Below the pieces are notes generated by a model. It was given only the letters and a program-made list of their open reading frames with translations. It ran no database searches and had not been told where the DNA came from. Source: a virus. Taken from it: a DNA stretch of 64,000 nucleotides. Where the stretch lies: positions 320,001-384,000 of IMG/VR virus record IMGVR_UViG_3300028840_006907. One strand, 5' to 3'. How positions within the stretch are numbered: the first letter of the stretch is position 1; every line of letters starts with the position of its first letter. Of this stretch, positions 1 to 42,322 are shown one piece after another. Made by a program: the position numbers and the translations under genes.

Positions 1-615
1 TTATTCCTCTCGTTTTGGTGTTATTATCATATATCCTTGTGATTGGAAATCTCTAGTAAGAGAATGTGTCTTTCCGAATGCATCAAAAAGGAATTTTGAT
101 CCGGAGGTAGGAGATATTTCATGGGCTAAAGTATTCGGTCCATCTGTAAAGGGGCCACTCTCATAAAGGCGTAAATCATCAGTTATAATTATATCATTTG
201 TGACATCTTTTAAAGATGTGATTACTTCTACTTCTTTCTCACATGGGAGTCTCGTATTATAATCAGGTTCACTATTATAATAGGTATAATGGAAGTCAGC
301 TCCTGGGAAATGAGCATCTAAAAAGAACAGTGTGTTGCCTTTCAAGTCCTTTATGATTTCGGGCAGAATTTTAAATGAGTTACCGTGATAAATTTTACAA
401 TTTTTCCCTTTTTCTTTTGATAGAGCATCAAATTTTTTTACTGCTTTTTTATATATCTGATCATAAATCTCTATTGAATAAAAATTTTCAAAGGAATAAT
501 TTAATGCATATTCCAAGCAATCACCTTCACCGGTACCAGTTTCAACATAATTTTTGAGGTTAAACGATTTAATCCATTTTTCCATTTCTGTAATAACTTG
601 ATTTATGTGTCCCAT
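1..615 (-). CDS. SAM-dependent methyltransferase-like protein (TylF/CmcI-like O-methyltransferase fold)
   Basis: Complete ORF (stop at 1-3 on minus strand). Motifs VETGTGEGDC and LFFLDAH resemble SAM-binding/metal-binding motifs of macrocin-type O-methyltransferases. By-eye motif call only. Confidence 0.45.
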   Translation of the reverse strand: MGHINQVITEMEKWIKSFNLKNYVETGTGEGDCLEYALNYSFENFYSIEIYDQIYKKAVKKFDALSKEKGKNCKIYHGNSFKILPEIIKDLKGNTLFFLDAHFPGADFHYTYYNSEPDYNTRLPCEKEVEVITSLKDVTNDIIITDDLRLYESGPFTDGPNTLAHEISPTSGSKFLFDAFGKTHSLTRDFQSQGYMIITPKREE

Positions 616-623
616 TTAATTCC

Positions 624-1286
624 TTATCTATAATTGTAATTGACTTTGAATAAGTCTTTGAGGTGGTAATAGTTCTTTGGTCCCCATCTTGAAAAGAGAT
701 CAATCTTTTTTGCCTTTAAAGTAAGCTTTTCCATTATGTAATTAAACACTGTATCGATTAATTGAATCTCTTCAGCATTTTCAATTACTTTGGACCAATC
801 AATTACATTAAAACCTTCATAAAGAGTATTATCTATTATTCTTAAATTAGTGGTAATTGGTATGGGAAAACATTTACTATGAGGAGGAGTACCATAATGA
901 ATATTTCTAAAGACATATCTCTCATTATCTTTTAAACCTAGTATTTTATAATAAAGTTCATTTTCTTTCTTAGGGAATCTTTTAAAATTAAAGTAATTGG
1001 TCCAATCCCTGTGATCCAGTCCTACTAATTTATACTTTCCTTCCATGATAGGACCTGGAATTATTTGATCCGCATTTTGTAGATCTACATAGAGGTCTAT
1101 ATTATCGGGTTGGCCAAGAGGTACGAATTCGACTCCTGGGCTTATGAGGTAATCATTATACCATAAAAATTCTTTTCTGACGGGCCATTTTACTTGATAG
1201 CCTTGGTGCACAAAGTGCTGACCAATTTTTTGACAGAAAAAGACATCTCCAATGCCAGCCGGTTGATTTATTACGCATAGTTTCAT
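624..1286 (-). CDS. hypothetical protein in glycan-modification operon
   Basis: 220-aa ORF tightly packed between methyltransferase-like genes; no motif recognised. Confidence 0.35.
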   Translation of the reverse strand: MKLCVINQPAGIGDVFFCQKIGQHFVHQGYQVKWPVRKEFLWYNDYLISPGVEFVPLGQPDNIDLYVDLQNADQIIPGPIMEGKYKLVGLDHRDWTNYFNFKRFPKKENELYYKILGLKDNERYVFRNIHYGTPPHSKCFPIPITTNLRIIDNTLYEGFNVIDWSKVIENAEEIQLIDTVFNYIMEKLTLKAKKIDLFSRWGPKNYYHLKDLFKVNYNYR

Positions 1287-2090
1287 TTATCCAATAATAT
1301 CCTTTAAGTATTTGTCGTATAAGATATCTTCAATTATGTCATACTGTAAGGCAATTTTGAAATTATTCTCAATATATTCCATCAAGGAATAATACAATTC
1401 AGGGGATAAATCCGATACATCAAAGTCATCTTTTAATGTTATGATACCACGACTATCAAAAAACTCTCCTACATCGGGACTCCCATGATATACTGGAACT
1501 GTACCAGTAGTAAAACAGTCCAATATTTTTTCAGTCCAGTAAGTTTCATATTGTGAATTTTCAATTGTAACGGAGAACATGTAATCTACCAGAGCAATTT
1601 CTTTTTTCTCTATTTCATTAAACCCTCTGCCGTAAAGATCTAATTTATCTCTTAATTTATTTACCCATGCTAGTCTGAAATTATGGCCAGCACACATCCT
1701 TTTAGCAGAACTCATCATTGAGGCTAATTTAGTCTTCTTATAAATTTTAGGTTCCTTTATCCAGTACCCGTGAGAGGTGATGTAATGGAAATTATCTGCA
1801 AGGCTGTAGATTCTTTTGTCATGGGTAAATAGGAGAGGATAGGATTCTGAAATTTCTTTTGCATGGGCTATTATGTTGTCTATTACATTAGGAATAATTG
1901 AACTGGATTCTACTACCCAGGCAATTTTATTCGTTTTATTATTTATGTTCGGAACTATTTGTTCATCTACGAAAAAAGTCAGATCTTCTTGTTTACCTTT
2001 AGACCAATCAAAGTACGTAGGTTTTTTCCATAGTGTAGAAGAATAAGCATGTTGGAACCAACCACCTATAAGTCCTATTTTCTTTTTCAT
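1287..2090 (-). CDS. hypothetical protein, possibly glycosyltransferase-associated
   Basis: 267-aa ORF abutting neighbours with no intergenic gap; no firm motif. Confidence 0.35.
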   Translation of the reverse strand: MKKKIGLIGGWFQHAYSSTLWKKPTYFDWSKGKQEDLTFFVDEQIVPNINNKTNKIAWVVESSSIIPNVIDNIIAHAKEISESYPLLFTHDKRIYSLADNFHYITSHGYWIKEPKIYKKTKLASMMSSAKRMCAGHNFRLAWVNKLRDKLDLYGRGFNEIEKKEIALVDYMFSVTIENSQYETYWTEKILDCFTTGTVPVYHGSPDVGEFFDSRGIITLKDDFDVSDLSPELYYSLMEYIENNFKIALQYDIIEDILYDKYLKDIIG

Positions 2091-2710
2091 TACAGACCGC
2101 CCTTGATATAGAATGCATCACCCCATGTCCCTCCATCCCATGTGGTCTCAGCTCTTTCAAAACCGTATTTTGAAAGGAAAGAATCCAACTCAGTTACCAT
2201 GCAACAATTTTCATAGACTTGATCACGATTTACTTCAGCAATGATATAGTCAATCTTTCTTAATGTCTCTGTGCCCCCTTTAAAAACTTCCAGCTCAAAT
2301 CCCTGGACATCAATATTAATGAGGTTGCTAAAATCAGAAAAATAAAAGTTGTCTAATTTTTCTACTCTTATCTCATCCGATTCTTCAAACTTAATATGTG
2401 GGTACTGTCTTAAATGTATCAGTGGTTTTAATAAGGAGCTAGATTCTCCTTGATTGGATGATTTATAGAAAGTCTTAAAACATTCTTCCGGACCTAAAGC
2501 AATGTTATAAATTCTTACTCTAGAGTCGTCTTTGATATTCTCGTATAGTACTTTAAAGGAATCTGGATCGGGTTCGAAAAAGTTCATCTCTTTTATTGAA
2601 TCATATTTTATATAAATTTTATATTCTTCCCCATAATGGGCTCCTATATGAATGATCCCAGTAACATTCATGTCGTATTTGTTTATTAATCTATCGAAAT
2701 CAAGTAGCAT
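2090..2710 (-). CDS. FkbM-family methyltransferase-like protein
   Basis: 206 aa; N-terminal GIIHIGAHYGEE resembles the FkbM-type SAM-binding region; operon context with other transferases. Confidence 0.45.
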   Translation of the reverse strand: MLLDFDRLINKYDMNVTGIIHIGAHYGEEYKIYIKYDSIKEMNFFEPDPDSFKVLYENIKDDSRVRIYNIALGPEECFKTFYKSSNQGESSSLLKPLIHLRQYPHIKFEESDEIRVEKLDNFYFSDFSNLINIDVQGFELEVFKGGTETLRKIDYIIAEVNRDQVYENCCMVTELDSFLSKYGFERAETTWDGGTWGDAFYIKGGL

Positions 2711-4765
2711 TTAATCCTCCCACTTAAGTTCAATCTCTTGATGTGGGGAAATATTTTTTACCCCTTTAATATTTCTGATAGATAGTTTACGGCCTTCCAA
2801 ATATTTCTGATTAAATTCTCCTGCTGAAATATTACCATGTCTGTTAGGGTAAGCTCCAACAAGATTTACAGGTATATTAACAATTTTAGATTCGTCATAA
2901 CAGAGCATCATAGGTCTTTCTGGAATCTGTTTCATAAGAGCATCTTCGAAAGTATTAGGATTGTTATAGGTACCGTTTTTTATTGCACTCATTAAATCAG
3001 GTGTACGATAGATATTTCCATCAACACTCATGGGATACCCCCAATCCCCGGCATAATTTTTCCATTCCCATTTATTTTCTGAAGAAAGATCGGGAGGCGG
3101 AGATGGTATGTTTTGGGGATAACAGAAATTGATCCTAGAGCATAATCTCAAAGAGATGCTTAAGATCTCATCTGGATTTAATTTGTCAAAGTCATTTCTT
3201 AATTTGTACGGTTCTTTGAATACAATGTCATCAACTAAAAACATTGTATATTCTTTTTCGGTATTTACAGCATTTATAACTGAATCTTTAAAATCATTAG
3301 TTTGTTTATAAAAGTAGAATCCTGGATGATCTGAGATAACTTTATCATAACCAGCTTTAAAATCATCGTTACTGTATGTCCATATAATAGTTATTTTGAA
3401 TTCGTACCAGTTTTCCCAAAGTTCCTTTATACTTCTTAATAATAAATCTAGTTGACATGCCCGATCTTTACTGAAAATAACAACATTCATATTTTTTAGT
3501 CTTTTATAGGGAGGTCTTTGGAAGATCCCATGAGCACAGTCCCTCTGTGTAGACCCTCTTTTATGGTCATTGACATCACTTTCAGTATTATAGATGTAGT
3601 TAAATGAAGTTAATAATTTAGCGTGTGAAGGACCTGCCATTTCGAGCATGGGTATCATGAATGACAAATCTCCTGCCATATGCCAGAAAGTGTCACCAGA
3701 GATAAAATCTCTTTTATCTATTTTTCTAAACAGCCATGTTTTAAAGGTCCTTAAATGAGTGGCTCTCCAGTCGGTGGTTTTTCTGAGAAGGTCCCAATTG
3801 GGCATTTTTGCCCATCCATCTCGTTCACCTCTTCCATTATATTCTCTAAATTGTCCGAATGAGATCCAGGTATCCGGGTCTTTATAAGCTTCAAGGACTC
3901 TTTCAAAAACCTTATTGTCATCTGGTAGCCAGTCATCTCCATCAATATTTATACAAATATCTTGATTATTAATTTCGGGTCTATGTAAAGTATGATAATA
4001 ATTTCCGCTGACATATCTTTTTTCGGTATTATTTATAATAACAAATCGATCATCTCCGTAAGTATGCCTTTCAATAAAATCAAGACTGTTATCTGTAGAT
4101 AGGTCATTACAGATATAACATTTCCAGTTTCTTACTGATTGGTTTTTTATACTGTTGATACATCGGATAATGTATTTACCTGCATTCCAACATGGAGTGA
4201 CAATTCGTAATGTATTTTTTTCTTCTTGATATTCTTGTAACACTTTGACTTCAGGTTTGGTCTCTTCTTTTTGGATACTCTTTTTTCGAACAACAATTTC
4301 GAAGGACCATTCTCCGTACATTTTTAAGTCGTAACGTTCATGATGGATAAGTTCTACACCACCTATTTTTTGAAGAATTTCCCAGAGATCTTCCCAGCCA
4401 AAATGATGGATATGTTTTTTGTTACATCTTGGATCATCTAATGGATGATAATATTCTTTGTCTACTTGGTAGAGGACTAGATATCCATCATCTTTGAGTA
4501 TTCTGAGCCACTCTCTGAGGGTTGCTTCGGTATCATATATTTCTTCCAATAAATGACTGGAATAGACATAATCAAAATGTTTATCAGGGTAGCAGGGCAT
4601 GAGACGGGCGTCTATGGGCATGTCTGCGAAAGGACTTAAAAGATCTATCCCTATAGCATCAATTTTTATTTTTGTATTACCACAGCCTAAGTCAACTCCT
4701 TGACCTTGACAGTATTTGAGTAATCTATTTCTGCAATTATCTGTTTCTCCTTTATGTCTTTCCAT
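2711..4765 (-). CDS. bifunctional class I SAM methyltransferase / GT2-like glycosyltransferase
   Basis: 684 aa; N-terminal motif I GVDLGCGN plus acidic post-I region; central KCYICNDLSTDNS resembles the GT2 DxD region. Confidence 0.55.
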   Translation of the reverse strand: MERHKGETDNCRNRLLKYCQGQGVDLGCGNTKIKIDAIGIDLLSPFADMPIDARLMPCYPDKHFDYVYSSHLLEEIYDTEATLREWLRILKDDGYLVLYQVDKEYYHPLDDPRCNKKHIHHFGWEDLWEILQKIGGVELIHHERYDLKMYGEWSFEIVVRKKSIQKEETKPEVKVLQEYQEEKNTLRIVTPCWNAGKYIIRCINSIKNQSVRNWKCYICNDLSTDNSLDFIERHTYGDDRFVIINNTEKRYVSGNYYHTLHRPEINNQDICINIDGDDWLPDDNKVFERVLEAYKDPDTWISFGQFREYNGRGERDGWAKMPNWDLLRKTTDWRATHLRTFKTWLFRKIDKRDFISGDTFWHMAGDLSFMIPMLEMAGPSHAKLLTSFNYIYNTESDVNDHKRGSTQRDCAHGIFQRPPYKRLKNMNVVIFSKDRACQLDLLLRSIKELWENWYEFKITIIWTYSNDDFKAGYDKVISDHPGFYFYKQTNDFKDSVINAVNTEKEYTMFLVDDIVFKEPYKLRNDFDKLNPDEILSISLRLCSRINFCYPQNIPSPPPDLSSENKWEWKNYAGDWGYPMSVDGNIYRTPDLMSAIKNGTYNNPNTFEDALMKQIPERPMMLCYDESKIVNIPVNLVGAYPNRHGNISAGEFNQKYLEGRKLSIRNIKGVKNISPHQEIELKWED

Positions 4766-4788
4766 TTTATTCCTCTAATTTAAATATG

Positions 4789-5337
4789 TTATCTGTTATC
4801 TTTTACAATCTGTTCTAATTGAGCTATACGATTTTTTAACTCAGTATTTTCAGTTTTTAATTTTTCTAATTCTTTCTCTTCTTCAATTTCGGTGTCTTTT
4901 ATCATAATGGAAAGAATTTCAATTTCAGCAGGTTTAATAATTTCTGGAAAATGTTCGAAATTAATTAAATAGAAATCTATTTCGATTTCTTCCTCCAGAA
5001 TTGAGTTGATTTCAGTAAAGAGTTTTTCATATTTATTTTTTAAATCAATAAGTTCAATTTTGAATTGAGGATTTTCTGCAACACCTTTAAATTCTTCGTT
5101 CTCGATGATGGGGGCATTATTTTCGTCTCTATCCACATATTTGGCACAAAGGTTTAGTCTCTTTTCTTCAAATTCATTTAAATCTTTTTGAAGGTTATCT
5201 AATATTTCGAGTTCTTCTTTTATCTTGTTTTTATTTTTTAATAAACCTAGTCCAAACCATTTGGATGCATCTATAATACTAACTCTTTGTATTGATTCGT
5301 TAATTTTTTTGATTTCTCCTCTTTTTATTTTAGCCAT
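4789..5337 (-). CDS. coiled-coil hypothetical protein
   Basis: 182 aa, K/E-rich heptad-like sequence (ELKNRIAQLEQIVKDNR). Confidence 0.4.
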   Translation of the reverse strand: MAKIKRGEIKKINESIQRVSIIDASKWFGLGLLKNKNKIKEELEILDNLQKDLNEFEEKRLNLCAKYVDRDENNAPIIENEEFKGVAENPQFKIELIDLKNKYEKLFTEINSILEEEIEIDFYLINFEHFPEIIKPAEIEILSIMIKDTEIEEEKELEKLKTENTELKNRIAQLEQIVKDNR

Positions 5338-5344
5338 TTTTTTC

Positions 5345-5842
5345 TCACTCTGTCCTTGTTATGTTGTAAACTTCAGTTTTTATCTTATCTAATTTTTTAA
5401 GAGTATCTTTTAAATTTTTCTCTATATCAAAGATTTCTTTCACAAATACTTCACTAGCGTTATATTGACCTTTTTTTATTTGCATTATAGCTATTTGTCT
5501 ATGTTCCGGTTCTGAAAGTACAAGAACGGTATTATCAGGAATTTTTCTTGAAATTATAACAGTAGCTCCCCACATATAACCCATAATACCATTTCTTATA
5601 GATTCTTTTCTTGTCTCCATATCAATTGAATCTTTACAAAATTTTCTAATATCAACATAAGATCTAGAATTCATTAAAACTTCATTTACTCTATTTTCAT
5701 GTTTTTCTATTTCTGCAAATCCATCAGCTAAAATATCGGGTATAAAATTAGGAATAGGGCTTTTAATAATTTTCCTAATATTTAATGACTTGATGAATTC
5801 TTCATATTCTATGTCTTTTAATTCTTTCGATAGGTATGCCAC
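5345..5842 (-). CDS. hypothetical protein
   Basis: 165-aa ORF in operon. Confidence 0.4.
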   Translation of the reverse strand: MAYLSKELKDIEYEEFIKSLNIRKIIKSPIPNFIPDILADGFAEIEKHENRVNEVLMNSRSYVDIRKFCKDSIDMETRKESIRNGIMGYMWGATVIISRKIPDNTVLVLSEPEHRQIAIMQIKKGQYNASEVFVKEIFDIEKNLKDTLKKLDKIKTEVYNITRTE

Positions 5843-6393
5843 TATTCATCCCCTTTAAAGATAGTATCTAAAAGTGAACCTTTATTATCCGATAATATGC
5901 AATTTTCGAAATAGGTTTTGAAAGATAAAGCATTTATTAATCGTTGAAAATCGACTCTTATTATTTTAAAGAAATAGTCATAAGCACAAGATGGGCATAT
6001 ATGATATATTTCAGGTTTTCCAGAGTTTTCTGAAACAATATCATATTTAATACATGTACTCTTAGCAGGGATATTACATCCTTTGATAGAACATTTTTGA
6101 GCCCATTCAATTATCTCTATGAATACTCTTCCTTTTTCACCATTATAGAAATTTGTGTAGAAAGGATTTATTTTCATATAAGTAATAGGGAATATATTAT
6201 ATACAGTAAGAACCGTATGGGGCTCTTTCATTGTTGCATCGATATCTTCTGAATTTCGTGAAATATATAATTCAGAGTCACATTGCATAATTTCTTTAGC
6301 CTTATTTTTATCACTAGTGGCTATTACTACTCTGTATGAGAAATTCAAAAGATTATCAAAATATTTATCAGTTGTAAATACTTCTAAATTCAT
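5842..6393 (-). CDS. hypothetical cysteine-containing protein
   Basis: 183-aa ORF with several Cys (CNIPAKSTC, CPSCAYDYF). Confidence 0.4.
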   Translation of the reverse strand: MNLEVFTTDKYFDNLLNFSYRVVIATSDKNKAKEIMQCDSELYISRNSEDIDATMKEPHTVLTVYNIFPITYMKINPFYTNFYNGEKGRVFIEIIEWAQKCSIKGCNIPAKSTCIKYDIVSENSGKPEIYHICPSCAYDYFFKIIRVDFQRLINALSFKTYFENCILSDNKGSLLDTIFKGDE

Positions 6394-6731
6394 TATAATC
6401 CTAATCTTTTAATAGTATGAGCTATATTTGGGAAATCCTCTTTTAATATATTAAATTGATTTTTACTATATGCTTTGATTTCGGTTGCTTCAGGAGCTAT
6501 CCAAATTTGAGCACCCCATATTTTTGCACAACATCCTTTTTCAAAACGTTCCTTATTTTTTTCAAAATCAAAAAAATTGTATACTTCTCTTGCGTAAAAC
6601 CAGTCTTGTGGGCCTATAATTATATGATCAACTTCTTCTTTAGCGCTTCGTATTTTTGAAAATATCTGTCCAAAATATCCGATTATATCTTCTTCATTCA
6701 TTTTTTTTAAAATTGACATGTCTACTCCCAT
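6393..6731 (-). CDS. hypothetical protein, tandem paralog A
   Basis: 112 aa; C-terminal APEATEIKAYSKNQFNILKEDFPN matches the neighbour's IEEATEVKVYHEGNFSDMKKDFPN. Confidence 0.4.
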   Translation of the reverse strand: MGVDMSILKKMNEEDIIGYFGQIFSKIRSAKEEVDHIIIGPQDWFYAREVYNFFDFEKNKERFEKGCCAKIWGAQIWIAPEATEIKAYSKNQFNILKEDFPNIAHTIKRLGL

Positions 6732-7081
6732 CGTACTTTTTGTAATAATAGATTGTTAGGGAAGTCTTTTTTCATATCACTGAAATTTCCTTCGTGGTAA
6801 ACTTTGACTTCAGTTGCTTCTTCAATTAATAATACAGGGGTTTTCCATAGGAAACCCACTAGTCCATCTTGAGAGTGTTCATGTTTTTCGATAGAGTCGG
6901 TGTCTAAATATTCTCTGATACCTGATAAGGATGTGAGATAATCCCAATCAATTCGATTTATTATCATATAGCGTGGTTTTTTCTCTTGTCTGATAAAGAG
7001 CAAAGAGATGTGATTAATTACTTTATTCTTTTTAGTATTTTTATTACCGGTTTTTCCAGCGATTTCTTTTAAGCTTGGCAT
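6722..7081 (-). CDS. hypothetical protein, tandem paralog B
   Basis: 119 aa; shares the EATE-K-Y...DFPN motif with 6393-6731. Confidence 0.4.
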   Translation of the reverse strand: MPSLKEIAGKTGNKNTKKNKVINHISLLFIRQEKKPRYMIINRIDWDYLTSLSGIREYLDTDSIEKHEHSQDGLVGFLWKTPVLLIEEATEVKVYHEGNFSDMKKDFPNNLLLQKVRWE

Positions 7082-7084
7082 TTA

Positions 7085-7759
7085 CTATTCCCGGTAAAAA
7101 GGTGGAAAGGAAACCCAATCTTTCATTCCTTTTAGAACGAGTCCATCTACATCTACCTGCATTCCTCCTACTATTTGGATCATGGGTTTGAACTTTTCAC
7201 AAATTCTTTTTATAAATCGGAAATCATGTTCAGGTTCATGTCTCCAAGGTTCTTCGATGGCCCATTCTCTTTTTACTATATAACAAGGAGTACCTACGTG
7301 GCATATGATAGGAAACATATGAATATCAATTTCAGGAACAAGAACAATTGTCTCGGGATCTCCATCTTTATACATCCGGGATTGCTGACATGACATCTGT
7401 ACTATACCAATCATGTTGTCACGGCAATTTGAGATGAGTGTTTCGAGATAAGTATCTTTGTAACGATCATCATCATCACAAAATACTAGGTATTGTCCCC
7501 GAGAAATTTTTATACCGTGATTTCGTGGTTTCGTTCCTGGAGAGATATCCATATTACCGTAATCTTTTTCGATATTACAGAATTGTGTCCAGGGTCCAGC
7601 AGTTTTCATTAAGTTAATGACATCTACAGGAGGTGGTCCATCATATACTATTATATGTTCAAAATTTTTAAAAGTTTGGTTTTTGAAATCGTTAAGTAAA
7701 TTTGATAGTTCTCTTACACCGCGAGAAGCAGGGGTAATAACACTGATAGTTGGTCCCAT
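7085..7759 (-). CDS. GT2-family glycosyltransferase-like protein
   Basis: 224 aa; N-terminal ISVITPASRG...FEHIIVYDGPPP resembles the GT2 N-terminal region; CDDDD acidic cluster. Confidence 0.5.
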   Translation of the reverse strand: MGPTISVITPASRGVRELSNLLNDFKNQTFKNFEHIIVYDGPPPVDVINLMKTAGPWTQFCNIEKDYGNMDISPGTKPRNHGIKISRGQYLVFCDDDDRYKDTYLETLISNCRDNMIGIVQMSCQQSRMYKDGDPETIVLVPEIDIHMFPIICHVGTPCYIVKREWAIEEPWRHEPEHDFRFIKRICEKFKPMIQIVGGMQVDVDGLVLKGMKDWVSFPPFYRE

Positions 7760-8011
7760 TTTGTCTCCAAGCCAATTTTAAAAAAGATAAATAAAAATTA
7801 GGTCTCATCATAGTAAAAAATATTAAAAGAATATTAAAATACCCTTTACATGCCATATAAATACTTTTTTCTTTTAGAAGTCCTTATAGTCCAGTAGGTT
7901 ATATATCAATTTAATTATCTTTTAATACAAAATTCCTTTGTATAGATCTAAATTTTCTTTAAAATAGAGATATTAAATTCAAATCTAAATCAAATAGTGA
8001 AAGGATTCCTA
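7760..8011. promoter_or_regulatory. divergent intergenic promoter region between minus-strand operon and plus-strand block
   Basis: ~250-bp AT-rich non-coding gap between divergently oriented gene blocks; several TATAAT-like boxes. Confidence 0.3.
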
Positions 8012-9475
8012 ATGGTAACAGAGTTTACAAAAGGCAAAAATCAAAAATTTGTAGCAACTATATCCTTCAGTCTTAATTGGGATGATAGAGATATTAAATC
8101 TATTAAGATAAAAGAGGGTCAGGAACTTTTCTATGATGGTGAAGTAGCTACTGTAGAAAATGGTGCTGGACAAGTAAAAGGTCGGTGTATGGGGTTAAAA
8201 TCAGCCATTAATGTTATGAATTGGTTGGTTCCTGTGGAAAATGGGGGGTCTTCAAAAACTCCTGAAGTACCAAAAATAGTTAGTGATAGTTTATTTGAGA
8301 ATGATGATTATAAACCAGGAATAGGTGGAAATCTTGACACTTATATCGAACGAACTAATGAAATTGGTGGGAAACGAGAAATTATCAAGGAAGAAGATTT
8401 GATTGTTAAAACTGTCTCACCTATTAATAAGAGAGAAGAGCAACCTAAGAAAGGAAAATTGGAAATAGCAGGAGATCAAGTTGAAGTCCCTAAAGACCGC
8501 CTTTTAGTAAGTAGTACCACTATAAGAACAAAGTCGAGTAAAAGAGATGTCACAATAACCAGAGCTGATGAAATGGGAGCTGATTCGGTACAACCTCTTA
8601 AAAAGGTTAAAGGAACAACTGCTAAAAAAGAAAAGAAAAAAAGTTTTACAGTTGATGATACTACTCCAAGACAAATTCATGAAGATATGAAATTGGATGA
8701 GATCCATCGTATCACTAAAGTTGTAAATGCTGATGAGTCTCAAGATGCTAAAGTTGTAAAGAAAATCGATAGATCTAAAGTAGAAGTCAAAGAAATTGAG
8801 GGAGTTACATTAAAGAGAACCGATTCTCCAAAAGATGTTAAGTTTAATAAAACAACTTCTCCTACTGAAGTTTCTATAAAAACTACTGTTGGTTCTGGAA
8901 GTAATTATTCCGCAGGAGATCAAGGTGGTGTGGTTGTAGGTAGATCTAAAGTTGCTAAAACTGGAGTTGAGAAAAAAGGTCAAGATTTAATTGATGATAT
9001 TTTTGAGGAAGCTCCAGTAATTACTGAAGAGGAAAAACAAAAACAAGCTAAAAAATTAGCTGAGAGAACAAAAAAAGCCCAAGAACGAGCGGCCAGCAGG
9101 AAAAAAAGTTCTAAAGAAACACAGAAAATGATGGAAAAGGAGAAAGAAGTTCAGAATGTAGAAGTTGAAATCCCTGCTGATAAGGCACCTGATCTTATTG
9201 AAGAAGTAAAAGCAGATGATTTAACAAAAATTACATCAGTGGAAATAGATGGTGATTTAACTGAAATAACTTCTGTAAAAGAAGATACTGTTGATTATCT
9301 ATTAATGTTGCCCGATAATTGGAACAAACTACATTGGGTAAAGAAGGAAAAATTTATAAAAGAAGTAACAGATGCTTCCTTTATAAGGTTTATTCTTTCT
9401 ATGGAAATAACCAAAGCAGTCAGAAATGCTTGTTTAGAAAGGTTAGAAGAACTTGGACAGAAAGAGTCAGGCTAA
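8012..9475 (+). CDS. lysine/glutamate-rich hypothetical protein (possible scaffold or internal structural protein)
   Basis: ORF track begins at a GTG at 7997; in-frame ATG at 8012 has a GAAAGGA RBS upstream. Highly charged low-complexity sequence. Confidence 0.5.
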   Translation: MVTEFTKGKNQKFVATISFSLNWDDRDIKSIKIKEGQELFYDGEVATVENGAGQVKGRCMGLKSAINVMNWLVPVENGGSSKTPEVPKIVSDSLFENDDYKPGIGGNLDTYIERTNEIGGKREIIKEEDLIVKTVSPINKREEQPKKGKLEIAGDQVEVPKDRLLVSSTTIRTKSSKRDVTITRADEMGADSVQPLKKVKGTTAKKEKKKSFTVDDTTPRQIHEDMKLDEIHRITKVVNADESQDAKVVKKIDRSKVEVKEIEGVTLKRTDSPKDVKFNKTTSPTEVSIKTTVGSGSNYSAGDQGGVVVGRSKVAKTGVEKKGQDLIDDIFEEAPVITEEEKQKQAKKLAERTKKAQERAASRKKSSKETQKMMEKEKEVQNVEVEIPADKAPDLIEEVKADDLTKITSVEIDGDLTEITSVKEDTVDYLLMLPDNWNKLHWVKKEKFIKEVTDASFIRFILSMEITKAVRNACLERLEELGQKESG

Positions 9476-11231
9476 ACGAATACTTGCGAATGTTGTCGAT
9501 TTTGATATGCATAACCTTTTTCCTCCACGAACCTTTATGGAGAATCTGGAAGATGCATCATCAGGAGAGTTTACATCTCAGCCTCAAAAAACTCTTAGGG
9601 AACGCCCTTATGGTACTCAACCATTAATGGTAACCCCTAAGTATGAGGGTGATTTCCTGAAAAAGTTACGGAAACCCGAACTAGAAGGCAAACCTGTAAT
9701 GCCTTTGGAAAATGTCGTGAATGTTTATGCTGCAAATCCAAATAATTTATGGGATTTCAGTATGCCTTCTGAATGGTTAAAACATCAGGAACGGCCTTTT
9801 CCCCGTAACCTCGTGGATCTCTATTATGAAACAAATAGGCCAGGTGAGGGTGTTGGAGAAAAAACTCTTGATGAATACCATGATCGGGGTTGGGATGCAG
9901 ATGATGCTCCTGAAATGTCAGAAGACAAACCTATTCGTAGAGGACCTTTTCCTGGGAAACCTTTAAAAGTTCCTTTTCATTCGGCATCAAAAAGAGTGGT
10001 GGCGTCATATTTATCTGAGTTTACGGAAAAAGATGAATGTTGTGGACCGAATGTAGGGATAGTTGTAGCATCATATTTAATGAATTGTGTTCCTTCTGAA
10101 TTTATTGTTAATTTTGAAAATATTAAAACCGCTATGTTATTAGAGGGGTTAGAAGAAAGTCGGATTGATAGTAAAACAAAAGGACTTCATAAATTAGAGA
10201 CTGGGGATGTGGTTGTAAGACCTTATAGAAATAGCCCTAAACAGGGTAAATGGATTTTTAAAACATTCTCAGGTCCAAGACCACCTGCAGCAATAGAGTG
10301 GCCTTATACTACAACTTTTGAGTTTATACCACATGGAAGAGAAAAACGAGTAAATAAACTTCATGTAAGAACGAGTTGCACTTGTCCTTCCTGGCTTTTT
10401 TGGGGTGCTCAATATAATGCTACTATGCAGGATTATAGGTATGGTCCTATAAGACCTAAGTTTGCTCCTCCTGACAAAAGAGATAAAAGGCGTAAGTTTT
10501 TAGCCTGTAAACATATCATAGCTTGTATTCCATATTTAGTTGGAACAGGACAACGTGGTAAATTTACCGATGAAGGTTTTTCTCTTCATATGATTGATGT
10601 TCCTGTAGAAAAGAGAAAACGGATCATAAAAGCTCCTAAATTTCAAATAATGAAAAAGGCTCCGATAGAAGAGTTAAGAATACCCCAGGAATTAATGAAA
10701 GCAGGTAAGAAGCCTGAAGTAAGATCTATTGTTTCTGAGTGGAAAACTGCTACTCCGCGTTTAAGAAAATCCATGTTGAAAAAGTTGGATGATGTTCAGG
10801 ATGTCTCTTACATAGCTCATAGGTTTCCTGAATCAGCTACTCATTTAGTTGCTGAGAGATTGAAGGAAATTGGTGATAAGACAAAACAGATGGATGTCAA
10901 GAAAGATGCGGTGGAGGAAATAAAAGTAATAGAGAAGATTGAGGATAAAGTTGAAAAAGCTCTTCCAGAAGTTCCGGCTGAATTGAGTCATTTTGAAGAT
11001 GATGAGAAGATCCAAAATTTATTAAAGGACATTAAAGAAACTCCTGGTTGGGAAAGAAAAAGTACACTTTTGAAGGAACAGGATGATGCTGATGCTCTTG
11101 CATATATGGCAATAGCTTTATATCGAGAGGATTTTGATGAAAGTGTTAATATTATCCTTGAAAAATTAAGTGATATGGTTAAGGAAAAGGGTGATCCAAA
11201 AGCCAAGAAATGGTCGGAGTATATTTATTAA
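9453..11231 (+). CDS. hypothetical protein with SWIM-type zinc finger
   Basis: 592 aa; CTCPSW...CKHIIAC fits the CxCxnCxH SWIM pattern. Start uncertain (TTG at 9453 or ATG at 9507). Confidence 0.5.
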   Translation: MDRKSQAKRILANVVDFDMHNLFPPRTFMENLEDASSGEFTSQPQKTLRERPYGTQPLMVTPKYEGDFLKKLRKPELEGKPVMPLENVVNVYAANPNNLWDFSMPSEWLKHQERPFPRNLVDLYYETNRPGEGVGEKTLDEYHDRGWDADDAPEMSEDKPIRRGPFPGKPLKVPFHSASKRVVASYLSEFTEKDECCGPNVGIVVASYLMNCVPSEFIVNFENIKTAMLLEGLEESRIDSKTKGLHKLETGDVVVRPYRNSPKQGKWIFKTFSGPRPPAAIEWPYTTTFEFIPHGREKRVNKLHVRTSCTCPSWLFWGAQYNATMQDYRYGPIRPKFAPPDKRDKRRKFLACKHIIACIPYLVGTGQRGKFTDEGFSLHMIDVPVEKRKRIIKAPKFQIMKKAPIEELRIPQELMKAGKKPEVRSIVSEWKTATPRLRKSMLKKLDDVQDVSYIAHRFPESATHLVAERLKEIGDKTKQMDVKKDAVEEIKVIEKIEDKVEKALPEVPAELSHFEDDEKIQNLLKDIKETPGWERKSTLLKEQDDADALAYMAIALYREDFDESVNIILEKLSDMVKEKGDPKAKKWSEYIY

Positions 11232-11578
11232 TGAAAATCGTTCCAGACATAATTTATTCAAAATGTAAAACTAGCTTGTATTGTAAAGGAGGAGAGACTC
11301 TAAATGATTCTTTGAATTACGGTTTCGCCTATATAGAACAACAGGATCATATCGTTGAATACATTGTGGCAAACAATCGTGTGATGAAAAGGATTTTGGG
11401 AGAAATCGGTGATTCAAAATTGAAACCTGAAAAACAATTTATTGGAGAACTCTGGACAGCAAAATTATTATTGTCGAATAAATTGCATGATTCACAAATA
11501 CTTTTTTCTAACAGTGTTTTTTCAATAGTTATAAATCTAAATCTAAATCCAAAGGAAGTTGACAATGCCTACATATGA
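11231..11578 (+). CDS. hypothetical protein
   Basis: ATG at 11231 overlaps the upstream stop (TAATG), suggesting translational coupling; track start 11210 is an alternative. Confidence 0.4.
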   Translation: MKIVPDIIYSKCKTSLYCKGGETLNDSLNYGFAYIEQQDHIVEYIVANNRVMKRILGEIGDSKLKPEKQFIGELWTAKLLLSNKLHDSQILFSNSVFSIVINLNLNPKEVDNAYI

Positions 11579-14053: not shown

Positions 14054-14431
14054 ATGAGGAAATCTAATGAATCTACTGATAGAGCATGTAATGCTGTTGT
14101 TGACTATATAGATGAAGGATCATTATACTCTGCCGGTAGATTGGTTATTTATCGGCAAGATTCTAGTGTCATGTCAATTCATAGCCTTTCTGATCCAGCA
14201 TGTATAGACTCAACTGATGGGACCGCAGTATTTAATACTATCTATGATGCTACAGCTATGCTAGACGGTACAGCAACAACATTCGATGTATTAAATAAAG
14301 ATGCAAGTAATGTCTTTGATGGAAGCGTATCCTTAACAAATGGCTCAGGTGATCTGAAATTACCTGCTACAACCATATATCAGGATTCCACCATTAATAT
14401 CTCATATGCCTTTTACTCTGTCCCACGGTAA
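14054..14431 (+). CDS. hypothetical protein
   Basis: 125-aa ORF, tight spacing. Confidence 0.4.
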   Translation: MRKSNESTDRACNAVVDYIDEGSLYSAGRLVIYRQDSSVMSIHSLSDPACIDSTDGTAVFNTIYDATAMLDGTATTFDVLNKDASNVFDGSVSLTNGSGDLKLPATTIYQDSTINISYAFYSVPR

Positions 14432-16543: not shown

Positions 16544-17032
16544 ATGAATAAGCAATCGTTTAATAAAGAAAATGTTACAGAACTTCTTAGTCAATTGAAA
16601 AAAGTAGTTAATCGGGATTTGGGTGATGAATATAATCAGGAATTAATAGAATTAAGTAGGAAAATAGACCGAAATTTTAAAAAGAGAAAATTAGTAATGC
16701 GGGTGGCTTCTAATTTTTTAAAAACTATTCTTGCTACAATGGCATATAGTACTCATGGTAAATGGTCACCTTCAAAAGAGATTTATAAAACTGAAAAAGA
16801 ACGTGGTAATAAAGTTGATAAACTTCTTTTACAAGAAAATTATGACGCTATTTGGGTATGCCCTAAACCAGAAGATTGTGTAAGATATAATAGAAGTAGT
16901 GATGAAGAAGATGATCCTGTAACACAGGAAGAAATTGATGAACTCGTCAAAGTCAATTTGAGTGGAGCTACACACGTAAAATCTATGGATGATGGTGATG
17001 GCGGGGAATTATGGATTAGAAAGGCAAAGTAG
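16544..17032 (+). CDS. hypothetical protein
   Basis: 162-aa ORF between rhodanese-like and sulfotransferase-like genes. Confidence 0.4.
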   Translation: MNKQSFNKENVTELLSQLKKVVNRDLGDEYNQELIELSRKIDRNFKKRKLVMRVASNFLKTILATMAYSTHGKWSPSKEIYKTEKERGNKVDKLLLQENYDAIWVCPKPEDCVRYNRSSDEEDDPVTQEEIDELVKVNLSGATHVKSMDDGDGGELWIRKAK

Positions 17033-17610
17033 TGATTTGTTCTGATGAATATCAATTCATATTTTATGCAGTCCCTAAAACCGGTTCTCGATCCATGCAA
17101 AATTTTCTTCAACGTTACGGTCGTCGCTCTGTAACTGGCTGGTCACCTAATCATAATAATTATGAAGAAGTAAAAAGTGATGTAGGTATAGAAAAAAGTA
17201 ATAAATATTTTAAGTTTGCTTTTTTCAGAAATCCATGGGCTATGCTTGTATCCATGTATTTCTATAATATGCATATATGGGGACTAAATGCCAAAAAAGA
17301 TTCTGTTGTAAATTGGCTTAATACATATAAAGGCGGGGATCCTTATATTCCTTATATTTTTGATAATGAAGGAAATGCCATTTTGGATTTTATGGGTAAG
17401 TTAGAAAATTCCAGAGAAGATTTAAAAACTGTCTGTAAAATGTTAAAGATCCCGATCTCAGGAGAATTGTCCCATATAGGAAAACAACATGTAAAAGGAA
17501 GATTGGATTATAGAGCGTATTATGAAAGTCCAGTACTAGTGGAAAAAATAAGAAAGATATTTTCAAAAAGTCTTAGTGTGTTAAATTATGACTTTAATGA
17601 AGGGGTTTAA
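17032..17610 (+). CDS. sulfotransferase-family protein
   Basis: 192 aa; N-terminal AVPKTGSRS (5'-PSB-like) and FRNPWAMLVSMY (3'-PB-like) motifs. Apparent GTG start overlapping the upstream stop. Confidence 0.6.
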   Translation: MICSDEYQFIFYAVPKTGSRSMQNFLQRYGRRSVTGWSPNHNNYEEVKSDVGIEKSNKYFKFAFFRNPWAMLVSMYFYNMHIWGLNAKKDSVVNWLNTYKGGDPYIPYIFDNEGNAILDFMGKLENSREDLKTVCKMLKIPISGELSHIGKQHVKGRLDYRAYYESPVLVEKIRKIFSKSLSVLNYDFNEGV

Positions 17611-21408: not shown

Positions 21409-23859
21409 TTATATTTTATTATTTTTTCTAAGGAGAGCTATCTGACGTTTAATCCATCGAGGAGTTTCTTCAAGAGTTTCAGCCATTTGATTTCTTGTCA
21501 TCTTTCCACGATTATCTATTATGAATTGGAGCTTTTCTTCAGTCTTTCTATCTTTGGTACAACCAATAGGGTTTTTTGTAGATAATGTACCTTTTTTTTG
21601 TAAGAATTTTATTTGAGATTTAACCCATCGCTCTGTTTCATTGAGAGCTTTAGATAATTCTTTTTTAGTTTTATTTTTATAATTAGTGATTATATACTGC
21701 GTTTTTTCAGGGGTTCTTCTACATTTTGTTGAGAATTTAGAAATCTCTTTTAAATAGGTAAATTTCTCAGTGGGTTGTTTAATATTTATATCTTCAATAC
21801 ATTTTGAATTATATATTTCTTTTTCTCTTTTAGGATAAGGTTTAGTAACATAATTTTTTAATTTGTTAATTTTTTTCTTATCTCTTTTATTTTCACCTAT
21901 TAATAAGACATATTTATGTTTTCTTTCAGTAATAAATTTTTGAGCTTCAGATAATATATTTTTATTCCAATTATTCCATTGAACTTTAATTCCTTCTGGT
22001 ATGGTACTCATATTTTTAAAACCATTTTCTTTAAACCATTCCTTTTGAGAAATAATCCCTTGATTTTTACACCATTTTTTAAATGCTGATGTACGTTTTA
22101 GAGATTGAGCTGAAAAAGTCCTATTATTTTTAATGGAAGGATGTTTATATAAGTATGAACTTCCAAAGTTATTTCCTAGATAATCAAATCCACAAGCTTG
22201 GTAAATAGTCCCTATTTCAAGAGCTTTAGGATCAGCATAACCTATGAAAGCTCTTTTAGAAGTGTTATTAGCCATCCAATTACAAGCAAACCTTATAAGA
22301 CGGCTACCCAGGTTTTTCGGGGTCCATGAGGCAGTGGCACCTCTTTGAATTAAAGCTTCATATTTGGGAGTATCTTTACCTAGAATTTTGGAATATGCTG
22401 TGGGTTCATTTATAAATAATACTCCTGCGAGAATATTATTGTATCTGGCTGTGAAGCACCATTTTGGTATTACTCCAATTGTTCCTAACCATTCATATTT
22501 TTTTATAAATTGGACCATTTCATTATTAAATTTTTCTTCAGATAATGTAAAAGAAGTAGCTTTTAAAGAAGAGTGATTGAAATCGATATTTTTTTTATCT
22601 TCATCAATCCATTGAAGTTTCTTTTTATATTGGTGGCATATAAAAGTGGTCTTGTTTTTACTGTTAATTTTATTTTTTATTAAATCAATGATAATACCTT
22701 TTCGGATAGCTTCTTTTACATCATCAGACCAAAATCTAATCAAATTGGGTATATTTTTATTTTGGATTTCATCATTCTTAATATTTTCTTTTATTTTTAA
22801 TGCCCTTGGAGACGTATCATTTTCTCTTATTTCTTTACCATGCCAATAATTACCATCATATTGTACCCATAAGTTATAGCGAGGCATATAGAAATCAATT
22901 ACATGTTTAATAATTGGGTGCATAACTTGATGTTCTACAAAAGGATCAAATACAATAAGATAATTAAAAAAGTTATTTTCTTCATCTGAGGATGAGAAGG
23001 AATTATTTAGTTTAACTGTTTTATATGTTTTTTCTTTTATTTCAACATTCTGTTGGGGATTTTCAACGCCATATCTTTCAATATTAGTTTCAGTGATTTT
23101 TTTCTTAATCTCTGGAGATTGGAATACATTGTCAACCCCGTATCTTGATTGTACTGTTACTTTAACTTTTCTTTTTACTTCTTTAGATTGAGAGGGGTAT
23201 TCTACTCCTCGTTTTTCAATATTAGATTGACGGGATTTTTCTTTCATTGAGTTTAGTTGAGTAGAATATTCTACGCCATAACGTTTTTTAATAGTTTCGT
23301 TATTATGTTTAACTATATCTTCATTTATTTTATCTCGATTCCTTCTTAATCCTAGTTTAATAGCTCTTTCTCGGATGGCTTTCCAGGTCCTGTTTTCAAA
23401 GTAGAGCATAATAAATTCCATAGAATTCTTTTCATATACTTCTTTTAAAAGATCATCTTCTTTGGGTGACCAGAAGTCTTCCCTAGCAGGAGCGCTTTTA
23501 CCACCATCAATCATTTCTTGTTTAATTATTTCAGGATTTCTTTGAAGGTTTAATTTTTGAGCATTACTTCGGATGCTTTGCCATGATCGATTCTTGAATT
23601 TAGAAAGGATAAATTCTTTTGAATTATTTTCATATATATTTTTAAGAATATTTATCTCTTCGGTTGTCCAGGAATCTTTTCTTGGTCCTCTTTTTTTACG
23701 GTCTTCATTTATAAGGTCAGGATTACGGTGAAGATTTAGCTTACGTGCTTTTCTACAGATGGTTGTCCAAGATTTATTTAATTTGGAGATAATAAATTCT
23801 TTTGAATTATTTTTATATATTTCTTTTAATAAATTTTCTTCTTCTATTTTCCAACGCAT
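21409..23859 (-). CDS. multidomain hypothetical protein: N-terminal triplicated helical repeats, YGV(E/D)N repeats, possible Vsr/PD-(D/E)xK-like nuclease core
   Basis: Start set at second Met (MRWKIEE) with AAGAGG RBS; track start is 23916. Three ~50-aa repeats (SWTTEEINILKNIYENNSKEFI...); three RYGVxNxxQ repeats; VIDFYMPRYNLWVQYDGNYWHG resembles a Vsr/DUF559-type core. Only minus-strand gene in the plus-strand block. Confidence 0.5.
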   Translation of the reverse strand: MRWKIEEENLLKEIYKNNSKEFIISKLNKSWTTICRKARKLNLHRNPDLINEDRKKRGPRKDSWTTEEINILKNIYENNSKEFILSKFKNRSWQSIRSNAQKLNLQRNPEIIKQEMIDGGKSAPAREDFWSPKEDDLLKEVYEKNSMEFIMLYFENRTWKAIRERAIKLGLRRNRDKINEDIVKHNNETIKKRYGVEYSTQLNSMKEKSRQSNIEKRGVEYPSQSKEVKRKVKVTVQSRYGVDNVFQSPEIKKKITETNIERYGVENPQQNVEIKEKTYKTVKLNNSFSSSDEENNFFNYLIVFDPFVEHQVMHPIIKHVIDFYMPRYNLWVQYDGNYWHGKEIRENDTSPRALKIKENIKNDEIQNKNIPNLIRFWSDDVKEAIRKGIIIDLIKNKINSKNKTTFICHQYKKKLQWIDEDKKNIDFNHSSLKATSFTLSEEKFNNEMVQFIKKYEWLGTIGVIPKWCFTARYNNILAGVLFINEPTAYSKILGKDTPKYEALIQRGATASWTPKNLGSRLIRFACNWMANNTSKRAFIGYADPKALEIGTIYQACGFDYLGNNFGSSYLYKHPSIKNNRTFSAQSLKRTSAFKKWCKNQGIISQKEWFKENGFKNMSTIPEGIKVQWNNWNKNILSEAQKFITERKHKYVLLIGENKRDKKKINKLKNYVTKPYPKREKEIYNSKCIEDINIKQPTEKFTYLKEISKFSTKCRRTPEKTQYIITNYKNKTKKELSKALNETERWVKSQIKFLQKKGTLSTKNPIGCTKDRKTEEKLQFIIDNRGKMTRNQMAETLEETPRWIKRQIALLRKNNKI

Positions 23860-23962
23860 ATGAGTACCTCTTTTTAGTATATTACTTATTATAACAGGTA
23901 TTAGAGTTATTGTCAATATTTCATTTAATAAATATGGAATTCATTAATTTATAGGGAAAAAG

Positions 23963-31665: not shown

Positions 31666-31695
31666 ATTTCTTTTGTAAAAAGGAGTTAAATACTC

Positions 31696-35172: not shown

Positions 35173-35250
35173 TAATTTAATAATCATTTAATATTTAACA
35201 TATAGGTAAATATCTAAATTTAAATTTAAATAAAATAAGTGAGGTTTTAT

Positions 35251-35553
35251 ATGTCTGGTGATCAAAGAGAACAAATACCACCTCCAACAGTGGTTGATGG
35301 CCCAGGAGTGGCAGAAGAGAAGCAAGAAACAGTTAACAAGACAGTTGATTCCAAAGTAAATTTGAATGTGGATCCAATTACTGCAATCAATTTAAATGCT
35401 TTGGAATATGATAGAAAGATAAGAGAGGCTGAGGCAGTTGTAGCCCAGTTAAAGAGTGAGAGAGCTGCTTACATTTATGATGCAAATGTAAAGAATCTTG
35501 TGGCTCAAGCTCAGGCTCAACAAAATCAACCTCAAAACCCAGTACAAAATTAA
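35251..35553 (+). CDS. hypothetical Q/A-rich protein
   Basis: ATG at 35251 preceded by GTGAGG RBS (track start 35239). Confidence 0.4.
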   Translation: MSGDQREQIPPPTVVDGPGVAEEKQETVNKTVDSKVNLNVDPITAINLNALEYDRKIREAEAVVAQLKSERAAYIYDANVKNLVAQAQAQQNQPQNPVQN

Positions 35554-35555
35554 TT

Positions 35556-35834: not shown

Positions 35835-35912
35835 CTCTCGATGATGTGTTTCATAGGTTTTTCATTTTTTCCTTCTTATTTAAAAATGTAGAACTTTGAG
35901 GTTAAAGAATTA

Positions 35913-35945
35913 AAAAAGGGCGATTGGTGAGTCGCCCTTTTTTAA
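35913..35945 (+). terminator. rho-independent terminator, possibly bidirectional
   Basis: A-tract, GGGCGA - loop - TCGCCC, then T6. Confidence 0.55.
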
Positions 35946-36008
35946 TTTTCTTCTAATATCATAATACTCTATAGAATCAATTTAATATCTATTATAAAAG
36001 GTATAATT

Positions 36009-42318: not shown

Positions 42319-42322
42319 AATT

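Follow-up and report, generated by a model that had tools for sequence, protein, structure and literature searches.

Gene clusters with which viruses build and decorate sugar chains are already known as a kind. The chlorovirus PBCV-1 encodes A064R, a soluble enzyme that joins two glycosyltransferase (GT) activities to one methyltransferase (MT) activity and completes the glycan of the capsid (PMC9614988). In mycobacteriophages, glycosyltransferases of the phage itself act on the capsid and on the tail-tube subunits, which yields a surface glycan shield (Freeman et al. 2023, as cited in PMC12619734). Glycan coats have until now been documented for chloroviruses, mimiviruses, and a few mycobacteriophages. 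Here we analyzed a 64,000-nt stretch of viral DNA (IMG/VR record IMGVR_UViG_3300028840_006907, positions 320,001–384,000; hereafter the window), whose first 7759 nt belong to an island of sugar-chain genes. We judge it an even call that this island encodes a soluble cytoplasmic pathway that would build an oligosaccharide out of nucleotide sugars and add O-methyl groups to it, with a virion protein as the preferred acceptor. The new details are a fixed-locus organization in huge phages with a conserved head and a variable tail, an MT-GT-GT fusion, two profile-less transferase folds, and embedded capsid-fragment genes. All functional assignments below rest on homology and predicted structures.

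Organization and gene content of the island

We numbered the island genes g1–g11 from the window edge at position 1, and transcription runs from g11 to g1 (Table 1). Positions 1–7759 hold eleven co-directional minus-strand open reading frames (ORFs) that are spaced by 0–23 nt or overlap by 1–10 nt, which bears out the tight packing given in a preliminary description of this DNA. Domain searches confirmed the transferase folds. Sugar-chain enzymes are encoded by 6/11 genes (g1, g2, g3, g4, g5, and g11), and the other five genes (g6–g10) are non-enzymes. In total this region includes five GT domains and two to three MT domains. The dedicated glycan synthesis or modification pathway proposed in the preliminary description is well supported by these folds, by homologs in cyanophage islands, and by syntenic islands in huge phages. 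The preliminary description had overlooked the GT10-like g3, the GT9-like fold of g2, the third domain of g5, and the lack of transferase signal in g6–g10.

Position 1 is the window edge and not the operon end. Eight more genes follow g1 in the same direction, which we read on the 388,651-bp contig L001 (14765–19818). The whole island spans ~12.8 kb and 19 genes, and the window holds its promoter-proximal two thirds. Among the off-window genes, the thiamine and radical S-adenosylmethionine (SAM) enzymes probably serve sugar tailoring, e.g. the addition of a two-carbon branch or C-methylation. The off-window protein x2 was rejected as a g2 paralog (hhalign probability 0.8%, E = 0.07) despite a common N-terminal GIGD motif.

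The GC content of the 1–7759 region (30–34%) is like that of the remaining window, and GC skew switches sign near position 8000, the same place as the flip in gene orientation. The 237-nt gap that separates the island from the conserved genes on the plus strand presumably contains the island promoter(s). Scans of positions 1–8200 for sigma-70-type promoters and intrinsic terminators found sites no more numerous than in shuffled sequence, which left the transcription units undefined. No tRNA genes were found in the window. Nucleotide similarity of positions 1–8000 to isolated phages was limited to short cyanophage segments of 120–330 nt. Contigs as long as 469,617 bp carry a protein identical to the 684-aa g5 product, and we therefore conclude that the window comes from an uncultured huge phage. 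We compared the island with seven related loci (L003, L004, L005/L006, L010, L011, L012, and one further) on contigs of 88–590 kb and fragments of 10–28 kb. All island genes in the window other than g6 and g8 had homologs in related contigs.

The fused methyltransferase/GT2 protein and the second GT2-like protein of the preliminary description correspond to g5 and g11. Both exceed the PF00535 cut-off of 23.3 bits and carry a DxD-type metal/nucleotide-binding motif, as expected for GT2. The third domain of g5 had giant-virus GT2 proteins as its best structural matches in BFVD, at the fold level only. There was no hydrophobic segment above 1.03 in g5. Full-length g5 homologs share 39–79% identity, and the modules occur apart and in different orders among homologs. 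No other module of the island is as well conserved as the methyltransferase domain (62–85% in full-length homologs, 64–67% in L010/L011), while the identity of the GT2 module drops to 25–30% in distant full-length homologs. The best PDB matches of g11 were TarP (E = 1.7e-7) and GalT1 (E = 2.1e-7), and the GT2 cores of the island showed weak PHROG similarity to GtrB-like families. A scan of viral contigs with g5 returned one spurious 1.4-kb match and nothing else.

About 60 of the g5 homologs listed contained the conserved 165-aa methyltransferase domain (50–76% identity to g5), whereas neither a GT2 nor a third domain of the g5 type could be detected in them. These proteins were mostly ~400 aa, and some were 600–690 aa with other GT or MT Pfam domains. 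They also occupied the same island position in L010 (10001–11251), L011 (10001–11215), and L012 (10001–11173). An unrecognized transferase family may be represented by the C-terminal half of the ~400-aa proteins, which has no annotation.

GT10 enzymes have the signature F-x-x-x-F/I-E-N-S-x4-Y-x-T-E-K, and the corresponding stretch of g3 reads ENSQYETYWTEK. Its motif FSVTIENSQYETYWTEK, with ENS at aa 177, lines up with the same motif in the FucTA structure 9s6a. Matches of g3 in the PDB were solved alpha-1,3-fucosyltransferases (E = 1.6e-9 to 1e-3), including FucTA 9s6a (1.6e-9) and H. pylori FucT 2nzw (3.4e-8), and g3 shares 42–46% identity with cyanophage genes annotated as 'putative transferase' or GT10. 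The GT10 N-terminal acceptor domain had no match in g3 at E <= 0.1 and the protein is 267 aa long versus the typical >350 aa; we therefore call it GT10-like rather than GT10. The neighboring g4 exceeds both cut-offs for an FkbM assignment (22.7 for PF05050 and 37.7 for TIGR01444). The adjacency of a GT10-like gene and an FkbM gene recalls rhizobial Nod factors, in which fucose transfer is followed by O-methylation, and is offered as a lead only.

The predicted GT-B fold of g2 was closest to GT9 structures, and its best structural matches included the lipopolysaccharide (LPS) heptosyltransferases WaaF and WaaC. It had no Pfam or NCBIfam match and no PDB match by sequence or by a 33-sequence profile. 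On this predicted structure, g2 is likely a glycosyltransferase. The preliminary description counted three SAM-methyltransferase-like proteins, but only two stand-alone ones were detectable, namely g4 and, at the margin, g1. The latter scored 25.9 bits against a PF02390 cut-off of 24, and the profile of its family matched only class-I methyltransferases in the PDB (E = 0.004–0.1). Homologs of g1 occur in L003/L004/L005, and a paralog (x3) with 35% identity lies beyond the window edge.

The island in related huge-phage loci

All seven related loci (7/7) have one layout, with g12–g16 homologs on one strand and a GT2 of 224–233 aa on the other. The one-strand block consists of proteins of ~490 aa and ~590 aa, a capsid-fragment paralog, Zn_ribbon_8, and a protein of ~215 aa, followed by DUF5659. 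After the GT2 comes a protein that begins with the conserved methyltransferase domain, and then a variable gene set. Transferases in the variable set of the relatives are GT1-like, GT47, GT10-like, Galactosyl_T, FkbM, and other methyltransferases, and the remaining genes include FdtA, DegT, hexapeptide acetyltransferase, zinc-dependent alcohol dehydrogenase (Zn-ADH), PfkB, B12-radical SAM, and a fused E1/transketolase. NTP_transferase, a sugar nucleotidyltransferase, also occurs in this set, on the opposite strand. The far flank in the three loci checked has a UbiE/CMAS-like methyltransferase of ~270 aa on the opposite strand.

The first gene, g11, has 61–87% identity to its counterparts in L003–L006, L010, and L011, and a GT2 of 226–230 aa stands at the same place in two further loci. 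Flank identities are lower than those of g11 and the methyltransferase domain of g5, at 35–44% for g12 and 37–49% for g13. Across the relatives g11, g3, and two modules of g5 (the methyltransferase and the third domain) are strongly conserved, with flanks at 35–50% identity. Because g11 and the methyltransferase domain are better conserved than g12 and g13, this head behaves as clade core and not as recent host-derived cargo. The remainder of the island behaves as a swappable cassette.

Hydropathy scans of the sequences of six loci revealed no apparent multi-pass membrane protein. Maxima stayed below 1.6 in this phage, and the few single segments of 1.6–2.0 in relatives lay inside soluble enzyme families. 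Flippase, polymerase, ligase, and phosphoglycosyl transferase had no Pfam match in any of the seven loci.

Capsid-fragment genes

The island genes g7, g9, and g10 belong to one paralogous family, and g14 in the conserved flank is a fourth member. Proteins of this family are ~110–190 aa, with a segment of ~80 residues homologous to aa 155–243 of the phage G-type major capsid protein (MCP) and often a helical tail. In g7, aa 20–113 have 41.5% identity to aa 161–251 of the major head protein of Tunturiibacter phage Tunturi_5, and g7 has 36.8% identity to aa 159–243 of gp27 of Bacillus phage G. A profile of 32 small g7-like proteins had one significant PDB match, aa 155–235 of the phage G capsid 6wkk_A (E = 9.6e-25), while its C-terminal part gave weak matches only, to helical coiled-coil proteins. 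The tail of g7 may be a coiled coil. Within the family, g9 matched g10 by blastp (E = 1.5e-9) and has 43% identity to its L011 homolog, and g10 has 53% identity to its L004 homolog. Homologs of g14 occur in all of L003–L006, L010, and L011, with 54–67% identity to those of L010/L011.

An exhaustive g7-type search returned 397 representative clusters at E <= 0.001, and the best of these were mostly 120–190 aa proteins mixed with full-length capsid proteins. The isolated phages G and Tunturi_5 have the full-length capsid gene only. For full-length MCP, tblastn with the phage G and Tunturi_5 proteins over the window and six loci found small fragments only. Capsid-fragment genes lie inside the island in this phage, L004 (2329–3227), and L011 (8674–10008), and beside it in L010 (6638–7210).

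The remaining non-enzyme genes, g6 and g8, had no homologs in L003–L006, L010, and L011. Profile searches (Pfam, PHROG, and NCBIfam-type) gave no family matches for g8, which is possibly zinc-binding. A role for g6–g10 as glycan enzymes was rejected, as none of them gave a transferase signal and the relatives lack these genes or have others in their place.

Proposed function and acceptor

The enzyme families, folds, operon structure, and synteny are established here, as is the lack of multi-pass membrane proteins; the order of steps, the donors, and the acceptor are inferred. The conserved GT2 g11 would put an early sugar on the acceptor, and g5 would add two sugars and one methyl group. A fucose-type deoxyhexose would be added by the GT10-like g3, and a further sugar, possibly heptose, by the GT9-like g2. 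The methyltransferases g4 and g1 and those downstream would cap hydroxyls with methyl groups, and the off-window split thiamine enzyme and radical SAM enzyme would tailor a sugar. Since the first island genes are conserved and the rest are swapped between relatives at a fixed locus, each phage would make its own glycan version.

Sequence alone cannot decide between surface-protein and host-envelope acceptors. We modestly favor a virion protein glycosylated in the cytoplasm, by analogy with chloroviruses and mycobacteriophages, over a host envelope glycolipid, and put this choice of acceptor at even chances or just short of them. It is favored because of the core-gene behavior of the island head, the capsid-fragment genes, the virion structural homolog nearby, the absence of lipid-carrier machinery, and these precedents; the GC match of the island to the rest of the window was also counted toward it. 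A more specific version is rather unlikely in our estimation. There, the capsid-fragment proteins g7, g9, g10, and g14 would be the glycan acceptor or adaptor, as mini-capsid proteins docking on the giant capsid, in a clade-core virion-glycosylation system where the conserved GT2 and methyltransferase domain act on a capsid-related acceptor and the variable tail makes the methylated glycan coat of each phage distinct.

Several points weigh against the main reading. No nucleotide-sugar synthesis gene was found within positions 1–7759, the methyltransferase assignment of g1 is marginal, and hydropathy windows are a crude membrane predictor. Two relatives have no capsid-fragment genes inside the island, and given these the co-location may be coincidental. 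GT2, GT9-like, and GT10 enzymes are typical of LPS/O-antigen synthesis too, and the glycosyltransferases of that synthesis are themselves soluble or peripheral, so that the lack of membrane proteins is compatible with host lipid-linked intermediates. A strong, though less probable, rival is that the same enzymes remodel host envelope glycans (LPS core/O-antigen, capsule, or S-layer intermediates) at the cytoplasmic face during infection, perhaps to block superinfection or keep progeny off debris. This is the usual reading of cyanophage 'LPS clusters', and homologous cassettes are conventionally taken as LPS or cell-surface modification genes (PMC3037559, PMC12801897), but what those clusters do has yet to be demonstrated (PMC3037559). 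The closest isolate-phage homologs of g2, g3, and g4 do lie in cyanomyovirus sugar islands beside heptose-pathway, epimerase, and transketolase genes. The structural matches of g2 to WaaF and WaaC, the membership of the LPS-fucosylating H. pylori FucT in GT10, and the top PDB match of g11 to TarP, a prophage wall-teichoic-acid transferase, point the same way, as does a hypervariability between conserved flanks like that of bacterial O-antigen loci. The better conservation of g11 and the methyltransferase domain than of g12/g13, however, would be unusual for host-tuned accessory genes, and the loci examined have no flippase, polymerase, ligase, or initiating phosphoglycosyl transferase. Only three g5 homologs are named bacterial among the 120 matches listed, and several are on contigs of 150–590 kb.

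Phage GT-A/GT-B enzymes are also known to put mono- to oligosaccharides on 5-hydroxymethylcytosine (5hmC) (10.1101/2023.12.21.572611), and the island could by this precedent hypermodify the DNA of the phage itself, placing a methylated glycan on a hydroxymethylated base against host nucleases. All island proteins are soluble, and the window has a Mom-like fusion and a ThyX-type protein followed by a weakly glycosyltransferase-like protein (Table 1). We consider this improbable. Intact pathways of the kind are commonly clustered, and most newly found glycosyltransferase contigs were without a neighboring base-modification gene and were judged less likely to act on DNA (10.1101/2023.12.21.572611). 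Here, 5mYOX/TET, C5-methyltransferase, and ThyA-type hydroxymethylase were not found in the island or its ~10-kb flanks in eight loci including this phage, and the ThyX gene is 46 kb away and belongs to a family of dTMP synthases. A complex glycan accounts better than a base adduct for the number of GT and MT domains, for the GT10 and GT9-like enzymes, and for the FdtA, DegT, and acetyltransferase genes of relatives. Least probable of all, and highly doubtful, is that the genes are functionally unlinked piecemeal cargo or 'stuffer' DNA, an idea proposed for cyanophage LPS clusters (PMC3037559), or makers of a soluble small glycoside. Gene content is highly variable between relatives and g6 and g8 are orphans. 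Against this, the ORFs are intact and tightly packed with hardly any non-coding sequence, catalytic motifs are kept (the DxD and ENS..Y.TEK motifs and the glycine-rich one for SAM), the seven related loci have the island at the same position, and g11, g3, and the methyltransferase and third domains of g5 are strongly conserved next to flanks at 35–50%.

If the island decorates virions, huge tailed phages would bear their own strain-specific, heavily methylated glycan coat. Such a coat would matter for host range, for how stable and sticky the particles are, and for whether grazers or immune systems recognize them. Should the island act on the host envelope instead, it would be a conserved host-takeover function of the clade. 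The island also gives a concrete locus for the long-open question of the role of phage 'LPS clusters'. Its compact soluble enzymes outside existing profiles (a 220-aa GT9-like fold, a GT-A domain without a Pfam family, and a three-activity fusion) are candidates for glycoengineering.

Neighboring genes in the window

The conserved flank, ~6 kb from the island, includes a 125-aa protein that matches the PHROG annotated as virion structural protein (phrog_3758, E = 6.9e-10). Farther on, at ~9 kb, lies the gene of a 192-aa protein whose PHROG match (E = 9.8e-8) has the annotation galactose-3-O-sulfotransferase; this protein, too, may modify glycans. By eye, the 592-aa protein of the conserved flank shows a SWIM-zinc-finger-like pattern (CTCPSW...CKHIIAC), and it has no Pfam match. 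The only other long minus-strand gene encodes an 835-aa fusion of a region with DUF7487/HNH-type endonuclease similarity and a Mom-like DNA-modification domain, and L012 has a comparable Mom fusion next to its conserved block.

Very large proteins of 1228, 1158, 741, 1305, 682, and 2441 aa without PHROG matches are presumably the large surface proteins that the preliminary description named as possible targets of decoration. Two of them carry Laminin_G_3 (concanavalin-like lectin) domains, and nothing ties the island specifically to these giant proteins at 28–52 kb. Two stretches of the 500-aa ThyX-type protein matched ThyX (198.5 bits). The next gene encodes a 225-aa phrog_1574 protein weakly similar to glycosyltransferases, and the two may work as a pair in nucleotide or DNA modification, apart from the island. 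A 338-aa protein matches Pfam Volactin from end to end (216 bits), which identifies it by homology as a phage-encoded actin-like protein, and adjoins a 448-aa protein without assigned function. Volactin is an actin homolog described from archaea. The window also holds a tail-sheath-like gene.

Table 1 Features of the island, its off-window continuation, and neighboring genes. Positions are those of the window unless contig L001 is named.
Feature	Position	Strand	Length (aa)	Assignment	Basis
g1	1..615	-	204	Class-I SAM methyltransferase-like (marginal); ETGTGxGD glycine-rich and conserved LDAHFPGAD motifs	PF02390
g2	624..1286	-	220	Compact GT-B fold, GT9 heptosyltransferase-like, without Pfam family	Fold
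g3	1287..2090	-	267	GT10 (alpha-1,3-fucosyltransferase)-like	PF00852 38 bits vs cut-off 23.9, aa 118-229
g4	2090..2710	-	206	FkbM-family SAM methyltransferase	PF05050 64.8 bits; TIGR01444 61 bits; phrog_8156 1.9e-31
g5	2711..4765	-	684	Methyltransferase + GT2 + second GT-A domain	Pfam
g5 domain 1 (aa 1-170)	4256..4765	-		Class-I SAM methyltransferase, motif VDLGCGN	PF08241 32.8 bits; PF13489 32.4
g5 domain 2 (aa 176-423)	3497..4240	-		GT2, DGD at aa 275	PF00535 70.3 bits
g5 domain 3 (aa 424-684)	2714..3496	-		GT-A fold, invariant VDD, without Pfam family	Fold
g6	4789..5337	-	182	Acidic, coiled-coil-looking by eye	Weak phrog_1401 match, E = 0.0029
g7	5345..5842	-	165	MCP-segment protein with C-terminal tail	phrog_2522 E = 7.9e-10
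g8	5842..6393	-	183	Cysteine-rich, C-x4-C ... C-x2-C	Sequence pattern
g9	6393..6731	-	112 (or 108 from ATG at 6719)	g7/g10 paralog	Alignment; hidden Markov model (HMM) E = 2e-38
g10	6722..7081	-	119	g7/g9 paralog	Weak similarity to phage G MCP aa 135-228, E = 3e-5
g11	7085..7759	-	224	GT2, DDDD at aa 95-98; first island gene	PF00535 43.3 bits
Intergenic region	7760..7996	.		AT-rich, divergent	Lies between island and conserved plus-strand block
Flank protein	9453..11231	+	592	SWIM-zinc-finger-like	Pattern by eye
g14	11210..11578	+	122	Fourth capsid-fragment family member, conserved flank	HMM E = 2.8e-7
Virion structural homolog	14054..14431	+	125		PHROG
Sulfotransferase-like protein	17032..17610	+	192		PHROG
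Mom-like fusion	21409..23916	-	835		Similarity
Very large proteins	27979..52126	+			
ThyX-type protein	53614..55116	+	500		ThyX match
ThyX/phrog_1574 pair	53614..55804	+			PHROG
Volactin-family protein	57217..58233	+	338		Pfam
Tail-sheath-like gene	60157..62958				
Off-window methyltransferase	L001	Same direction as g1	162	Methyltransferase	Paralog of g5 MT domain
x2	L001	Same direction as g1	285	No assigned family	
x3	L001	Same direction as g1	205	g1-like	g1 paralog
Split thiamine enzyme	L001	Same direction as g1	174 + 208	E1/transketolase-like	Halves flank radical SAM gene
Radical SAM enzyme	L001	Same direction as g1	349	Radical SAM	Between the two thiamine-enzyme halves
Zinc-ribbon protein	L001	Same direction as g1		Zinc ribbon	
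Methyltransf_24-like protein	L001	Same direction as g1		Methyltransf_24-like (weak)	

Comparison with known systems

The island differs from Gtr serotype-conversion modules (GtrA/GtrB/GtrV) in having no membrane flippase, membrane-anchored transferases, or transmembrane proteins. With phage DNA sugar-hypermodification clusters it shares soluble GT-A/GT-B enzymes, and TarP, the top PDB match of g11, is also a top structural homolog there (10.1101/2023.12.21.572611). Unlike those clusters, it has no adjacent 5mYOX, ThyS-type hydroxymethylase, or C5-methyltransferase, and it has many more transferases, including GT10 and GT9-like ones. Phage-encoded virion glycosylation is the likeness to the mycobacteriophages, with virion glycosylation only inferred here. 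The mycobacteriophages of Freeman et al. 2023 are reportedly small siphoviruses with far fewer glycosylation genes than this island. Clusters of the Megavirinae also combine sugar-nucleotide tailoring enzymes, glycosyltransferases, and methyltransferases, with content that varies between clades and clade-specific surface glycans (PMC10117803, PMC9614988). They belong to eukaryotic giant viruses with fibril glycans, and the likeness is one of population pattern and not of gene orthology. Bacterial O-antigen loci resemble the island in the same population pattern.

PBCV-1, with its capsid glycosylation enzymes A064R and A061L, offers a close counterpart to g5 in architecture, as A064R and g5 each hold two GT domains and one SAM methyltransferase domain in a single soluble polypeptide. 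Stand-alone methyltransferases nearby, a cytoplasmic glycosylation machinery of its own, and a fucosyltransferase in the system are further likenesses (PMC9614988). The domain order differs, and we found no sequence or close structural homology between the two proteins. By analogy, g5 would work like A064R in function while standing outside the A064R family.

The cyanomyovirus 'LPS' clusters (S-SM2, P-SSM2, S-SSM7, S-T4, and S-SCSM2R) resemble the island in individual genes, with a GT10-like transferase (42–46%), the g2 family (35–37%), an FkbM methyltransferase, a type-11 methyltransferase beside the g2 homolog, and a transketolase/E1-like enzyme. Homologs of g3, g2, g4, and the methyltransferase domain are adjacent in S-SM2, S-T4, Sf-CH8, and Mel-JY01, as in a shared cassette. 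The cyanomyovirus clusters examined have no three-domain enzyme and no capsid-fragment genes, and their heptose and epimerase genes have no counterpart in this window. The capsid-fragment genes here are phage G-type MCP-like and not T4-type, which points to another phage lineage, and the locus here is fixed, with a conserved GT2 and methyltransferase head. Gene homology nonetheless indicates that the island is related to the cyanophage sugar clusters at the gene level.

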